From: an uncultured Dehalococcoidia bacterium
GTDB taxonomy: Bacteria > Chloroflexota > Dehalococcoidia > Lucifugimonadales > UBA3495
Reading direction: 5' to 3'
Assembly (NCBI GenBank): GCA_950072105.1
Contig: CATMOE010000039.1
Span: forward strand, 1-35,302
DNA: 35,302 nt
Shown here piece by piece: positions 12,001-18,000 of this stretch; within the stretch, counting starts at the first letter, position 1; each line of letters opens with the position of its first letter. The position numbers are program-made.

Positions 12001-15000
12001 TGCGCATGATTCCTTGGCCTGCGGTACCTACCAATATCGTCAATTCGTTCGCCATAACATCACCTTTCCAAATAGATTTGCCTATTGGATTTAACTTGTA
12101 GCCCGGCGGGTCTTGGGGGTGTCAGGCCAGTGCGTCAGGGTTGATCCTGGGCGTGAACTTGGGCGGTAGGCCCAGTTCCACCGATACCATGTCCCTGGTG
12201 GCGTCCAAGAACCCACTGATCTTGATGGTCGGCGCGTCCACCAGGTATTCGATCTCGTCCCCAGTCACTTTAAAGGGGCGGTCGTGACCTGGATAGATGA
12301 CCGATGCCGCGTCGAATATCTTCTTGAGGCTGGCCTGGGCTTCTTCAACGCTCCAGAAAACGAAAGCAGGCAGTCCCCGCCGCACCGCTCCGGCGTCGGA
12401 AACGGCGTCGCCGCCAAGGCATACAAGCCCTCCGGAGGTCTGGACCAGAACGCTGTGATGTCCGGCGGTGTGGCCCGGCGTGTCCATGGTGCCTATGCCT
12501 TCTTCTATCTGCGTTTCCCCGGCAACTTCCACTACGTCGTGCCCGGCCAGAGTGTCGGCGAAATACTTGGCCGTGGCGTAGTCGCCGGCCCTGGGGTTAC
12601 GGCTGTACTCCAACTCCCGCTTGGATATCACGATCTCCGCGTTGGGGAAGAGGTCGGTATTCTGGGAATGGTCCCAGTGGGCGTGGGTAAGAATGACCCG
12701 GCCGATGTCTTCAGGTTCCAAGCCATGGGCGCGAAGGGTATCCACAAGCATGGACCGGCGTCCGAAGTGGCCCACGTCGACCACCGTCAGCTTTTCTCCC
12801 CGGACCAGCGTTACCGTGCAAAGGCCCAGGGTTGCTTGGTCGGTGTTGATGCTGAATCCGGGTAACAGGATCTCTATCTCCGGCATGATTACTCCTTGAT
12901 TCTGTTGTTGCTGCCAGGGTCGTGACTGGCCGGCAAGCAATCGATATGCTTCACGAATGGCATTATAACCGGGACAGGCAGGCTAGCAAACTTCACCATG
13001 CCCAGTAGGGGTTGTAGAGAATGCCAACGCCAGACTCAAGGTGTTTCGGAAGGCCCTGAGGGTGCTGGATAACAATCACTCATAAGGTCTTTGCGACGTT
13101 GTTCCGAGCTCCGCCCCAGTGGGGTTCTTCGTAGCTGAAAAAGCCGATTCCGAAGCTAATTTCTGCCTTGTCCAGGGTAGGCGACTCTGCTACAATCCGC
13201 CGAGAGCGCCGAAGGCCATTTCCATGCCTGCAACGCCAGATCGCCATTTTTGGTCCGGAACGGGCTCTATCTAACGATAGCGGTCGTACCCGGCGAGGAA
13301 ATTGATTCTTGCCAATCGTCAACTTCAACAACAGCCGGATGTCCGGCCTGCTGGAATTCATCGAGTCTCTCAATAGTTGGGGCCCGAAATCCAGGGAGTT
13401 GGGCCTTGGCACCTTTGAACAATCTCTGGGTGTGCCGGGCCTGGCCCCGGAGGACAACTGTTTCTTACTAGAGGAAGGCGGGCGGGTGCGGGGATTTTCT
13501 TTGATATTCCCGGAATTGCCCATCGGCCGTTCTGTATTGGAGATGGGTATAGCCCGTGATCTGGAGGGAACGCCCCAAGAGCTTGAGTTGGTCCGGCGTT
13601 CGGTGGACCGAGCCCGGCATATCGGGGCTAAGGTCGTCCATATCTGTGTATGCGGCAACCCTTCCAGGGCCAAGATGCTAGAGGCCGAAGGCTTCTCTCT
13701 AGTTCGTGTCTATTGGGACATGGTCTGGAGCCAAGATGAGCTGCCAGATCAGGAGAGACCTCCGGGCTTCAGCGTTCGTTCATACCAGCCGGGGGATGCT
13801 GCCGATCTGACCGAAGCCCAGAATTCGGCCTTTGAAGGCAGCTGGGGATTTTGTCCAAACACGGTGGACCAGATAGAATACCGCAGCCAGATGCCTAACA
13901 CGTCCAACCAAGGGATACTTATCCTGAATGACGGGGACAAGACCGCTGGGTATTGCTGGACTTGCCTAAGTCCCCTGAACGAAAACACCAGGGGTGTCAT
14001 AGGGATGATCGGAGTTGTTCCAGAGTACCGTGGCCGGGGAATCAGCCGTACGATACTGCTGGCGTCAATGGAATATCTTAGGTCCTTGGATGTGGCTGAT
14101 ATCGGCCTTCAGGTGGACGGCACCAACACCCCGGCGACTCGTTTATACACCTCGGTCGGGTTTGAGAAAGTGGGAGAGCTTCACTGGTTCGAGTTGCTCC
14201 TTTCCTGAGCCATCACCCCAAACTGCTTGAAGACACGTCCCGCCAGTATCCCCCCGGATATGATTACTTTCATGGCGTCGTCCACTGACATCTCGGTTTG
14301 AGTCACGTCCTTCGCCGCCACCATGACCAGAAACCCTGACGATGGGATCGGCGTAGTGGGTATGTAGACCGCCAGCACTTCCTTGCCGTCGGTGTCGACC
14401 ATCCTTGAAGTCACCAGACCGATGGACTGGATCCCTGGGCGGGGCCAATCGATGAGAACCACGCCGCTGTAGCGGGATTCGTTGTTGTTGGAAAGTAGTT
14501 CTACCGCAGACCGGGTGGTGCCGTAGATGTTCTTGACTAGGGGAATCACCTCCAGCACCCGGTGTCCAAATGCTATGAGGCGACGGCCCACCACTTGGGC
14601 CGCAATGATGCCCACTAAGTAGACAGATACAATCAAAACCGCCAGGCCAATGCCGGGTATTTCCGGGCCTGGAAGCAAGCCAAGGGGCTCTTTGAGAATA
14701 CCGTCCAGGAGATCGAACAGGAATTTGAGGATCAGAATGGTGACGCCGATGGGCAACATCACCAATATACCCGCACCCAAGGTTCGCTGGATGTGGATTA
14801 TAATCTTGCGAAATGGGTTAGAGCGGTCAGAACGTGGAGGGTTGTACGGCGGCAGGGGTGGCTCGGCCAAATGTTCCTCCGGTTGGTTCTAGCGGCTCTC
14901 GGTGATCAGCGAGTCGTAGACACCGGCGATTTGCCCCGCAACGTTGTCCCAGCTCAATCCCTCGGCCCGGCGGCGGGCTGCTAGTCCCATGCTATGTTGC

Positions 15001-18000
15001 AGGTTCCTGCTCGATATTATCATCTCCACGGAACTGGCGAAAGCTTCCGGGCAGCGCCAGGCCTTTAGATAACCGGTTCGCCCGTGTTGAATGATCGTGG
15101 AGAGGCCTCCCGCACGGGTGGCGACAACCGGGGTACCGCATGCCATGGATTCCAGGGCGGCCAGTCCGAAACTTTCGTAGAAGGATGGCACCACGCAAAC
15201 GTCGGCGGCGTTGTAGTAGAGGGGCAGGTCCTGCTGATCTACTCTGCCTATAAAATCGAACACCTTGTCAACGTTTAGACTTTTGGCCAATTCGCGTAAC
15301 CGGTCTATCTCTTGGTCCCGCCCGGCGCCACCTCCCACTACCAACACCCTTATCTGCTCGAAGGTTTGCAGTTGGGCGGCAGTGTGCAGCAACAGTTCAA
15401 GTCCCTTCAAGGGCTCGATGCGGCCAACGTACAGAAGCACTTTCTCGCCGTTGAGCCCCAGCTTTTCCCTCACTTCTTGTTGATCCAAGGGGCGGAACAG
15501 GGACAGATCCACGCCGCACGGTATCAGCCCGATTCTGGTTGCGTCGGCTTGGTATAGCCGAACCATGGCGTCCCTTTCATGGGGGCTGAATGCGACGATG
15601 TGATCCGCCGACGCCATCAACTCCCGCTCCACTTGCTGCCGGGTCGCCGGCTCCGACTCTCCCGCCCGGGACTGCATCTTGATAAGAGATAGTGTGTGGA
15701 AAGTGAGGATGTGTGGGGCTCGCCATTCAGTGGCCATCTGTTGCCCTACCCAACCAGAAAGCCAGTAGTGCGAGTGGACTGCCTGATAAGTTAGCCCGGT
15801 CTCTATCTGGAATTCCAGTAGGGCTTGGCTGAATTCGGGCAGGTGGGGAAATAGCCCGTCCAACGCCGTTTCGGTGGGGCCTCCTGGCAGGTGGATCACT
15901 CGCACTCCCGGAGCGATCTCAGTGATCTTGGATTCGGTGTCTGTGTGGTCCCGGGTGAAAATGTCTACCTGCACACCGGCGTTCCCTAAAGCAAGAGCGA
16001 GCTGCCTGGCATACACGTTCATACCCCCCGATTTTCCCTCTCCCGGAGAAGCGAGAGGGCAGGCGTGGAAGGATATGAAAGCTACTCTATTTACGTTCAA
16101 TTTCGCCTTACCACCATCTGGTATAGGTCATGCTGCTTGCCGCCCAAGTGTTGCTTGTAGGTTTCAGAACCCCGTAGAAAATCAAAATAGCCGATTCCCT
16201 GCTCAATCGCTTCTCGGAGGCAGAGAGCGTTGAGCAATAGCCCAACGCTGTAGTAACCATAATCAAGGTCGTAGCCGCTATTGTACAGCAACCTGGAAGA
16301 GGCGTAGTCGAAACAGAGGCTTGTGGCTACCGGCTTACCCTCCAGTTCAAGGAAATACAACCGAAGCAGGCCCATTTGGGACATTCTCCGGGCCATATTA
16401 TTGAAAAACCGTTCGTGTTCCTCGGTCATGTACTCTTCTTTTGCTTCGCTGCTCTGCTTCATCAGCCTAAGGAAATCTTCTAAGCGTGACATCACCTGCT
16501 GTTCGCCGGTGACCGCATACCATTTCCAATTAGGAACAGTCTCCAATCGCCGGAATTTGCGGCGCAATTCGTGGCGGTCCTTTTTTGACAGTATAGCCAG
16601 GTATTCATCCCATGATGACGGTAACTCAATGCCCGATGCCGTGTCTTCTTTTTCTATCTCCACCGAATAGCCGTGCTGGCGCGCCAGATCCGGTAGGTGG
16701 GTCAAAGTGGGAGAATTCTCCACCAGGGAATCCAGCCGCATAACGTCCCATTGCCGGTCTTCCAAGCTGGTCAGCAACGCTTGGTAGAAATCCGTTTCGT
16801 GGCCCGGACGCACCATGAAATCGTTGTAATCGACCGTTTCTTGGTTTCCGACGAACGACAGGGTGTCGCCCGATATCGTGAGTGAGGCTATACCGTCGAC
16901 ACGGTTAGCATCTGGCCCGTCATTGGATGGAATGTAAAATCCGGCCATGTCCTTGCCGTCGCCGAAGGTGTCCCACCACACTTCCTGCCACTGGGGTGTG
17001 AGGAATACGGTGTTTACCGGGCTGGACGTCAGCACGCCTTCCCACTCAGCCTCTATCTCATGAAAGGATGTGAGGGGCTTGGGCGCCATCAATCTACCTC
17101 GCGATGTAATAGGGCCAATAGCCCCTTTTCGCCAAGGCCTTTGTTTTCGAACCGGCCCCTGATTGCGGTGGTAACGACCCGGTTACCCGGATTCTGAATT
17201 CCCCGCATGGACATGCACATGTGTTCCGCCTGCAACTCCACGACAACGCCGTGGGGGTCTAGGGCGGAAAATATGGCGTCGGCCACCTGGCCGGTGAGGC
17301 GTTCTTGTACTTGCAACCGGCGAGAGGCTACTTCTAACACGCGAGCCAGTTTGCTTATTCCGGAGATCTTGCCATTGGGGATGTACGCAACCCGAGCAGT
17401 GCCAAAGAACGGCAGAAGGTGATGCTCGCACAGGGAATAAAAGGTGATGTTGCTCAATACCACCGGGTCTTGATGGTCTGCTTCAAACACGGCATCGAGG
17501 GCTGATGCTGGGTCCAGTCCGGTGCCGGATAGGAGCCATTCATACATTTGGGCTACCCGGTGCGGTGTCTCCTGTAGCCCTTCGCGTTTGGTGTCCTCGC
17601 CAACTCCGTCTAGGAGGGTGGTTATTGCCTGCTGAATGAGTTGTGGCTGAATGTCCTGTCTCCTTGATGTTACGATGCCGTGACCAGAGACGCGGCTTCC
17701 ACGGCCTCGAGTGTTGGCTCTATCTCGGTGGTTTGGCTGACAACGCTCCTAACTGCGAGGTCCGGATCTTTCAGGCCGTTGCCCGTAAAGATACATACTA
17801 CTCGCTGTCCCTCCAGATTCAACCCCTGGCGGCACATCTTCACCAATCCGGCGAAGCTCGCCGCGGAGGCCGGCTCGCAGAAGATGCCCTCCTTCGACGC
17901 AATCATTCGATAGGCATCTAGAATCTCGTCGTCACTTACCATGTCGATGGTCCCCCCGGAACTGTCCCGGGCGTCCACGGCGCCCTGCCAACTGGCTGGA

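Follow-up and report, generated by a model that had tools for sequence, protein, structure and literature searches.

The window, that is, the whole stretch of 35,302 nucleotides analyzed here, comes from the genome (92% complete) of an uncultured Dehalococcoidia bacterium of the SAR202 group and carries the following features.

13309..14208, plus strand: MshD-like tandem GNAT protein of the acetyl-CoA type, convergent with the cluster (MshD model 62.8 bits, cut-off 163.1)
14181..14870, minus strand: DUF502 membrane protein (its neighbour cluster is present in 29 of 80 related loci)
14889..16100, minus strand: MshA-like GT4 glycosyltransferase (MshA model 364.7 bits, cut-off 462.5), its start overlapping the stop of the next gene
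16097..17092, minus strand: FemX-like tandem GNAT protein (PF13480), candidate aminoacyl-tRNA-dependent ligase; probable ATG start at 17089
16541..16585, minus strand: basic helix of the tandem GNAT, residues 170-184, candidate tRNA acceptor-stem contact
16154..16159, minus strand: Tyr312-Lys313 of the tandem GNAT, candidate counterpart of FemX Phe304-Lys305
17089..17547, minus strand: FolE (GTP cyclohydrolase I); the frame is open further upstream, with a probable start ATT at 17652

The frames of the tandem GNAT and mshA-like genes overlap by 4 bases, and the probable ATG of the former overlaps the folE stop. FolE is probably a coupled neighbour in this order, outside the proposed thiol pathway; hom-thrC-folE is likewise conserved beside the tandem GNAT gene within the order. 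The first-pass annotation described a mycothiol-type pathway here; its gene cluster and coordinates stand, whereas the support that it drew from mshB-like genes, a reductase and ino1 is weaker than it stated. Its observation that the tandem GNAT gene adjoins mshA in 29 of 30 order loci, the 30th ending at a contig end, was confirmed. Neighbour counts were redone on six frames because antisense-frame clusters had appeared: neighbour clusters C13, C16, C18, C24 and C25 are apparent antisense frames (demonstrated for C13) and were rejected.

The structure model of the tandem GNAT protein (pLDDT 96) has FemX, FemA and Sbb17/Sba18 as its top folds, in agreement with the earlier annotation, and displays a FemX-like arrangement of the two GNAT domains: it matches FemA and FemX with a Z score of 22.1 (rmsd 3.3-3.4, 278-290 residues aligned) and Sbb17 with a Z score of 19.9 (rmsd 3.3, 272 aligned), whereas CoA-type tandem GNATs score lower (Z 15-17). 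The model of the MshD-like protein shows the opposite ranking, with Z 29.5-22 for CoA-type and about 18 for Fem-type structures. A basic-helix motif, RH[EQ]xxRKxxR, is found in 228 of the 257 tandem GNAT orthologues, with a net charge of +4 to +8. Comparison with FemX (PMC12945691) makes this helix at the second GNAT domain a candidate contact for the tRNA acceptor stem. In 256 of the 257 orthologues, [YF]K follows GxE, and by position, rather than by residue-level superposition, Y312-K313 is a candidate match of FemX F304/K305 and DhpH-C F328/K329. The acyl-CoA loop (Q/RxxGxG/A) occurs in a single tandem GNAT of 257 versus 17 of 26 MshD-like control proteins. Searches of PDB sequences with the tandem GNAT, as a single sequence and as a profile, yielded no significant match; its ESM Atlas matches are exclusively PF13480 clusters from Chloroflexota and Thermodesulfobacteriota, and a plasmid search gave 5 distant matches. 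PF13480 comprises 30,179 clusters at E<=0.001, and the whole family probably has the Fem-like fold in common, so that the fold carries no specificity for the proposed cysteine-ligase reaction. An 811-aa homologue, considered as a possible GNAT-mshA fusion, consists of two PF13480 units and was rejected.

As annotated previously for a smaller sample, the MshC model finds nothing above its cut-off in the order (0 of 61 genomes): the matches are full-length CysRS, including the 30 best (451-515 aa), and a CysRS-GT2 fusion. BshC was likewise found in none of the 61, in a search to which the controls responded. The MshC-like proteins noted earlier in other Chloroflexota are genuine paralogues: the 29 complete top matches are short (383-421 aa) and lack the CysRS C-terminal domain, and in a CysRS/MshC tree, built in quick and FastTree versions, the 19 that were included form a group (support 100) together with a Nonomuraea protein that exceeds the MshC cut-off. 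A full CysRS is also present in 5 of 5 genomes with an MshC-like gene; among ten GNAT-only genomes, nine have a single full CysRS and no short copy, and the tenth gave no match. The short MshC-like profile separates from CysRS narrowly, at 557-678 versus 472-527 bits for training members. With the MshC class set by a 345-bit threshold (checked for a subset) and 6-8 MshA candidates scored per genome, the 143 MshA-like-positive genomes among 201 Chloroflexota divide into 51 with the GNAT only, 76 with an MshC-like gene only, 7 with both and 9 with neither; by family, 17 are GNAT-type and 16 MshC-type, 3 have genomes with both ligases and 3 are mixed. Fisher's test on the GNAT/MshC 2x2 table (p 1e-21) involves kin that are not independent and is not used as support. 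The gene order is mshC-like, deacetylase, mshA at loci L139 and L140, and GNAT, mshA, deacetylase at L146, L147, L158, L278 and L279; the deacetylases beside either ligase type score about 100 bits each on BshB1.

Within the order, the tandem GNAT is encoded in 59 of 61 genomes. Its spread in the phylum, put at 12 of 40 genomes by the first pass, is wider (78 of 201 at E<=1e-15), and the system is not specific to SAR202, occurring also in other Chloroflexota and in a second phylum (that of genome G261, labelled Thermodesulfobacteriota). In the latter, the GNAT is present in 33 of the 34 MshA-like genomes among 251 and adjoins mshA in 26 of 30 loci; a short MshC is absent from 5 of 5 cassette genomes checked. 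The mshA gene is present at 74 of 80 GTDB loci, 66 of 80 metagenome loci and 24 of 29 phylum loci of the GNAT; when mshA lies elsewhere, the deacetylase is often still with the GNAT (3 of 5 and 2 of 4 cases in two locus sets).

The MshA-like and MshD-like proteins both fall below the NCBIfam cut-offs, as already stated in the annotation, and the MshA equivalog TIGR03449 is above cut-off in none of the 201 Chloroflexota genomes. The GT4 scores 365 bits on the MshA model versus 114 on BshA (BshA cut-off 273.7). We take the acceptor-site roles of MshA residues to be those seen in the C. glutamicum structure. In the C. glutamicum alignment numbering, the GT4 of this genome retains His9, Asn25, Tyr110, His133, Thr134 and Arg154 and lacks Asp20 and Lys78; among 131 orthologues, 56 have Asp20 and 87 have Lys78, whereas in 39, this one included, residue 20 is Lys and residue 78 is not. 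The actinobacterial MshA signature is prevalent in the Chloroflexota GT4s (Met24 in 122, Thr134 in 131 and HSHYW in 101 of 131), and the cyanobacterial signature (Gln24, HTNYW, HS), as represented by two cyanobacterial plasmid homologues rather than TeSPS itself, is absent. In a GT4 tree, actinobacterial MshA and the cyanobacterial and Burkholderia relatives shared a single branch nested among the Chloroflexota proteins; MshA was not separated from these outgroups, and therefore no support is drawn from this tree.

The two mshB-like genes annotated earlier exist (174 and 163 bits; cut-off 224), but neither is linked to the cluster; the deacetylase that travels with it (44 of 80 loci) is BshB1-like, with an orthologue in this genome at G000:C6:16300-17007 (BshB1 model 99.9 bits). 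The MshD-like protein has a CoA-type tandem GNAT fold, with MAB_4324 ranking first (Z 29.5) and MshD fourth (Z 23.4), and is a candidate N-acetyltransferase for the last step, although the gene is not universal. The annotated MscR is above cut-off (652 versus 512.9), and the claim of abundant DinB proteins (19 DinB_2 matches, 18 over the cut-off, compared to about 20 DinB/MST-family proteins annotated) holds for this genome. Within the order, 13 of 61 genomes have an MscR above cut-off, and every one of them is GNAT-positive; in the phylum sample, MscR is above cut-off in five GNAT-only, five MshC-type and one incomplete genome; in family f82, it is present with equal scores in GNAT-only and MshC-type genomes. 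The supposed mycothione reductase is a broken gene: the Mtr-like sequence at G000:C45:1493-2841 is divided between two frames and under cut-off, and its larger piece scores higher on a dihydrolipoyl dehydrogenase model. The break is real, as contigs from four runs, belonging to four studies, span it with no indel. The ino1 gene is present as annotated but belongs to an operon of the phosphatidylinositol type (next come another GT4 and a gene that reads as pgsA-like) and is therefore not specific evidence of mycothiol. A murF search of this genome gave one weak match (38.6 bits; cut-off 288.6).

The system resembles the actinobacterial mycothiol pathway (Ino1, MshA, MshA2, MshB, MshC, MshD) in having an MshA-like GT4 that retains most of the signature residues of Actinobacteria, a PIG-L deacetylase, an acetyl-CoA tandem GNAT, an MscR over cut-off and many DinB proteins; it differs in the Fem-fold GNAT in place of MshC, the BshB1-like linked deacetylase, MshA and MshD under cut-off, the broken or absent Mtr-like gene and the patchy MshD-like gene. 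In the accessible text of Hiras 2018 (PMC6282198), co-occurrence of mshA-D is restricted to Actinobacteria. With the bacillithiol pathway (BshA, BshB, BshC), a precedent for another ligase at the cysteine step, it shares a GT4, a BshB1-like deacetylase and the putative cysteine-glucosamine amide; it differs in that BshC was not found in 61 genomes and that the GT4 is far nearer to MshA than to BshA. FemABX are the best fold match (Z 20.9-22.1), with the basic helix, the aromatic-Lys pair and no acyl-CoA loop, in contrast to the lack of a PDB sequence match or a convincing murF here and the linkage to a GT4 and a deacetylase. Orf11/Sbb17/Sba18 of streptothricin-type antibiotics share the tandem GNAT fold and the proposed chemistry, an amide formed from aminoacyl-tRNA on an amino-sugar amine; Orf11, encoded in an antibiotic cluster, uses Gly-tRNA and streptothrisamine, whereas the present protein, 13-15% identical to this group, is a single-copy core gene product with Cys-tRNA as the proposed donor.

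The tandem GNAT is probably a non-orthologous replacement of MshC that transfers cysteine from Cys-tRNA to glucosaminyl-inositol; we infer the amino acid, the aglycone and the use of tRNA, along with all of the chemistry. The earlier proposal of an aminoacyl-tRNA-using MshC substitute is thus supported by the near-exclusive distribution of the GNAT and the true MshC clade, the gene neighbourhood shared by the two ligases and the tRNA-transferase sequence features. In the proposed pathway, the MshA-like GT4 would take GlcNAc from UDP-GlcNAc and attach it to a sugar-alcohol phosphate, with the residues pointing to inositol-1-phosphate as the most likely acceptor; a phosphatase and the BshB1-like PIG-L deacetylase, linked by gene order, would expose the glucosamine amine; and the GNAT, holding aminoacyl-tRNA via the basic helix, would pass the amino acid to this amine as Orf11 does to streptothrisamine. 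The amino acid would probably be cysteine, given the displacement of MshC and the presence of MscR, from Cys-tRNA charged by the ordinary CysRS. Where an MshD-like gene is present (SAR202 and some others), N-acetylation would give mycothiol or a close variant; elsewhere, the product may remain unacetylated. Several observations argue against replacement: seven genomes have both ligases; without a detected MshA, an MshC-like match is found in 17 genomes and a strong GNAT match in 7; 48 of the 61 genomes of the order lack MscR, none of 8 genomes from family f62 yielded an MshD-like gene, and the Mtr-like gene, broken here, was found in only 8 of 61; no sequence feature of the GNAT names the amino acid, and its sole NCBIfam match (30 bits, weak) is named acyltransferase; and, in phmmer, the GT4 scores 255.9 bits with C. 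glutamicum MshA and 253.7 with a sucrose-phosphate synthase, so that the two are equally close.

Transfer of Gly, Ala or Ser from tRNA to the same acceptor, giving a non-thiol aminoacyl-glucosaminide (a solute or carrier), appears unlikely. It would fit the Ser, Leu, Gly or Ala used by the GNAT-fold transferases listed in section 7 of PMC12945691, and the retention of the cassette in small f62 genomes with no MscR or MshD-like gene detected, but not the alternation of the GNAT with a cysteine ligase clade or the presence of MscR over cut-off in GNAT-only genomes without MshC (in the order, also without BshC). Distinctly unlikely, in our estimate, is transfer of cysteine to an aglycone other than myo-inositol, which would yield a new thiol of the cysteinyl-glucosamine kind, intermediate between mycothiol and bacillithiol: the sub-cut-off GT4 in all 201 genomes, with TeSPS equally close, the BshB1-like deacetylase, the 39 orthologues with the altered positions 20 and 78 and the separate ino1 operon speak for it, and the actinobacterial rather than cyanobacterial signature and the much higher score on the MshA than on the BshA model speak against it.

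The CysRS-GT2 fusion, named as a rival in the first pass, or an ordinary CysRS could be the ligase, with the GNAT an acyl-CoA acetyltransferase of another step. A second CysRS (open frame of 729-972 aa), which carries the GT2 domain, is indeed found in 34 of 61 order genomes, with split or partial copies in 3. However, the fusion retains the CysRS C-terminal region, lacks msh neighbours at 6 of 6 loci, coexists with a true MshC-like gene in G171 and was not found in the MscR-positive G012 and G060 or in 9 single-CysRS GNAT-only genomes; the GNAT itself lacks the acyl-CoA loop, and its mutual exclusion with MshC would be unexplained, which makes this explanation highly improbable. That exclusion is equally unaccounted for if the genes serve to modify a glycan or lipid of the envelope, or are linked merely by inheritance, with no small thiol. 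Frequent CelD/BcsL labels on PF13480 proteins, the neighbouring DUF502 membrane protein and the retention of hom-thrC-folE beside the GNAT are compatible with such a role, but the GNAT-mshA linkage holds in other classes and the second phylum, which have largely lost the linkage to thrC/folE, and we assign this explanation the smallest probability.

Replacement of MshC by the tandem GNAT would add a third route to the cysteine-glucosamine amide, after MshC and BshC, through a GNAT-fold enzyme that uses Cys-tRNA, a combination absent from the list in the 2026 review section; the only Cys-tRNA user in section 7 of PMC12945691 is a PEARL, and our literature search found no paper describing a GNAT-type cysteine step in a mycothiol-like pathway. 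Genomes and structure models suggest that deep-sea SAR202 bacteria, like many anaerobes, make a mycothiol-like protective thiol with another enzyme at the cysteine step. With modest confidence, we favour the view that SAR202, other Dehalococcoidia, Anaerolineae and part of Thermodesulfobacteriota reach mycothiol or desacetyl-mycothiol by a second route, through a Cys-tRNA-dependent GNAT, while much of the remaining Chloroflexota uses true MshC. In that case, thiols of the mycothiol type would be the usual small thiol across Chloroflexota rather than an actinobacterial speciality, their synthesis would tap the Cys-tRNA pool of translation directly, and a single clade within the large PF13480 family, at present mislabelled as acetyltransferases, would gain a function. 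The accessible part of a commentary (PMC6336425) mentions unidentified thiols in anaerobes and Chloroflexus aurantiacus; for abundant dark-ocean bacteria and for anaerobes, the present reading proposes a small thiol whose identity can be tested.

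The candidate for the missing MshC ligase, a PF13480 tandem GNAT protein (hereafter the GNAT), is encoded in a minus-strand run, directly in front of an mshA-like GT4 gene:

hom and thrC, minus strand, upstream of folE
17089-17547, minus strand, folE
16097-17092, minus strand, PF13480 tandem GNAT
14889-16100, minus strand, GT4, MshA-like (MshA model 364.7 bits, cut-off 462.5)
after GT4 in the same run, minus strand, DUF502
13309-14208, plus strand, second tandem GNAT, MshD-like (MshD model 62.8 bits, cut-off 163.1)

The overlaps between folE and the GNAT gene (TGATG) and between the GNAT gene and GT4 (TTGA) suggest that the three genes are translationally coupled; near homologues are labelled SAR202 and Dehalococcoidia. 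The folE frame (17089-17673) extends 5' of the listed ATG, with a probable ATT start at 17652 preceded by AAGGAG. Elsewhere in the window, a 1512 aa protein with hydrolase, CHAT, NB-ARC and TPR domains (6470-11008) is a predicted STAND-type conflict or signalling protein.

The first-pass annotation described mycothiol-type genes without MshC and a conserved GNAT gene before mshA, and both observations hold across the order Lucifugimonadales: the GNAT is present in 59 of 61 genomes, with mshA adjacent in 29 of 30 loci, and the MshC model exceeds its cut-off in none of the 61, the 30 best matches being CysRS of 451-515 aa. A search for BshC in the same genomes found it in 0 of 61.

The proposed Fem-type fold is likewise borne out. 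FemA/FemX (Z 22.1, 22.1 and 20.9) and Sbb17 (19.9) lead the structure comparison with the GNAT model (pLDDT 96), and MprF domains (Z about 18) still rank above CoA-type tandem GNATs (15-17); the Foldseek ranking agrees, and for the MshD-like model the ranking is reversed. According to PMC12945691 and PMC4964394, members of the tRNA-dependent group share a basic helix that binds tRNA and a conserved Lys that follows an aromatic residue, and acyl-CoA enzymes a Q/RxxGxG/A loop. Among 257 distinct GNAT orthologues, 228 have the basic motif, 256 the aromatic-Lys pair and one the CoA loop, which occurs in 17 of 26 MshD-like proteins used for comparison. The fold, the presence of both tRNA-type motifs and the near absence of the CoA loop support the prediction that the GNAT uses tRNA; this evidence leaves the amino acid unnamed, and the family of the GNAT is very large.

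In the DISPLACEMENT test, one set of 201 Chloroflexota genomes was searched with the GNAT profile (E ≤ 2.3e-55), the MshA model (E ≤ 1e-70 for an MshA-like match) and the MshC model (at least 345 bits). Among the 143 MshA-like-positive genomes, 51 have the GNAT alone, 76 an MshC-model match alone, 7 both and 9 neither (50, 74, 7 and 9, respectively, without the unpublished genomes G098, G232 and G205). By family, 17 of 39 are GNAT-type, 16 MshC-type, 3 include genomes with both ligases and 3 (f82, f90 and f105) are mixed, each with GNAT-only and MshC-only genomes. All but one of the 30 best MshC-model matches are complete, and these 29 proteins, of 383-421 aa, stop before the CysRS C-terminal domain; 19 of them form, together with a Nonomuraea protein that is above the MshC cut-off, one branch of the tree apart from 21 CysRS (support 100). 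A full CysRS is also present in five of five genomes with a short MshC-like protein examined; among GNAT-only genomes, a single full CysRS was found alone in nine of ten, with no match in the tenth. By their short length, their separate branch and the full CysRS alongside, the high-scoring MshC matches are real paralogues.

Against the alternation stand 17 genomes with an MshC-like match and no detected MshA, 12 of them from family f77 (e.g. G106, L132), where all 12 genomes have an MshC-model match of at least 355 bits and neither an MshA-like match nor the GNAT; seven genomes with a strong GNAT match and no detected MshA, two of which (G105 and G036) have a sub-threshold mshA-like gene next to the GNAT; and eight genomes of family f99 that lack MshA and whose GNAT paralogue is weaker. 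In f99 (e.g. L290), whose genomes have no MshA-like match, the paralogue is a more remote PF13480 protein similar to Mig-14 and probably part of another pathway. At L271 (G100:C3:17351-18299), the GNAT gene of a genome that also encodes an MshC-like protein is frameshifted, through either decay or assembly error.

Two genomes of family f88 have the order mshC-like gene, deacetylase, mshA, and GNAT-type genomes (L146, L147, L158, L278 and L279) the order GNAT, mshA, deacetylase; the deacetylases of both kinds of loci each score about 100 bits on BshB1. At other MshC-type loci examined (e.g. L142, L144 and L284-L289), no mshA lies within some 6 kb; a GNAT standing alone at its locus is seen in families f75, f97 and f82. 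At L141 (G160:C37), an MshC-like gene immediately adjoins an above-cut-off MscR gene. GTDB loci of the GNAT (the best 80 of more than 550 matches) include mshA in 74, a deacetylase in 44 and an mshD-like gene in 26, and metagenome loci (likewise the best 80 of more than 550, many of them short) in 66, 17 and 23, respectively. In the phylum to which G261 belongs (label Thermodesulfobacteriota), 251 genomes yielded the GNAT in 55 and an MshA-like match in 34, 33 of which carry the GNAT; the 30 best GNAT loci adjoin mshA in 26 cases and a deacetylase in two and lie at contig ends in two. A check for MshC in this phylum covered five cassette genomes, reached via named loci, and found no short MshC in any of the five.

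Other parts of the gene list fared unevenly. The deacetylase had been assigned to an mshB-like pair; the BshB1-like family of the 44 loci instead matches G000:C6:16300-17007 in the source genome (380 bits, against 82 and 75 for the mshB-like genes). The gene listed as mycothione reductase is a probable pseudogene: this Mtr-like gene (G000:C45:1493-2841, L068) is split by a frameshift common to four studies, the break being spanned without indel by contigs of four runs (three of DNA, one of RNA), although in one run the covering contigs join close to it; one RNA-run variant has an additional 10-base deletion. Mtr-like genes occur in 8 of the 61 order genomes. The ino1 gene is present (511 bits, cut-off 638), but the next genes are another GT4 and one read as pgsA-like. 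MscR (652 bits, above cut-off) and some 20 DinB-family proteins (19 DinB_2 matches) were recovered as described, and a murF search of the genome gave one weak match only.

MscR, mycothiol-dependent by the name of its model, exceeds its threshold in 13 of the 61 genomes of the order, every one GNAT-positive, and in 11 of the 201 phylum genomes (five GNAT-only, including the unpublished G205, five MshC-type and one incomplete). Family f82 has it in both GNAT-type and MshC-type genomes, with equal scores; most GNAT genomes lack it. A phmmer search with GT4 allowed no choice between MshA and TeSPS (activity described in PMC7264703). At the signature columns, the 131 GT4 orthologues have Met24 in 122, Thr134 in 131, HSHYW in 101, Lys78 in 87 and Asp20 in 56, against Gln, Ser and HTNYW in the two homologues from cyanobacteria. 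These columns, whose residues presumably have roles in the MshA acceptor site, favour the identification of GT4 as MshA. Lys20 is found in 39 of the 131, including the protein of the window, and never together with Lys78, as though the lysine had shifted within the acceptor site in compensation. Close MshD-like orthologues are scarce outside the order, and a search of family f62 found none; lineages may therefore differ in their end product. Family f86 has the MshD-like GNAT in three tandem copies (L304-L306).

The CysRS-GT2 fusion, which forms a second, longer class of MshC-model matches in the order and occurs in 34 to 37 of its 61 genomes, is a rival candidate for the ligase. However, it retains the CysRS C-terminal region, has msh neighbours in none of six loci and shares the G171 genome with an MshC-like gene; searches of the MscR-positive genomes G012 and G060 did not detect it. 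The fusion (about 730 aa; G000:C22:1-740 with C62:18078-19616; L454-L459), present in more than half of the order, is also found in another class, and is the sole CysRS match in two incomplete genomes.

A literature search covering few subscription papers turned up neither an account of a tRNA-dependent replacement for MshC nor one of Chloroflexota mycothiol genes. Hiras 2018 (PMC6282198) reports mshA-D together in Actinobacteria only and describes mshC as the msh gene with the widest distribution; Chloroflexota orthologues could be listed in Data Set S1 of that study. Unidentified thiols of C. aurantiacus are mentioned in PMC6336425, and passages of PMC2922099 and 10.1101/325027 add nothing on the GNAT-mshA system.

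We consider it fairly probable that the GNAT replaces MshC, transferring cysteine from Cys-tRNA to glucosaminyl-inositol, in a pathway that would work like that of mycothiol, yet fall outside its strict membership. Short MshC-clade ligases below the NCBIfam cut-off are found in many Chloroflexota (L109-L144 and L257-L260) and, because they usually accompany an MshA-like gene, suggest that mycothiol-type synthesis by the classical ligase exists outside Actinobacteria.
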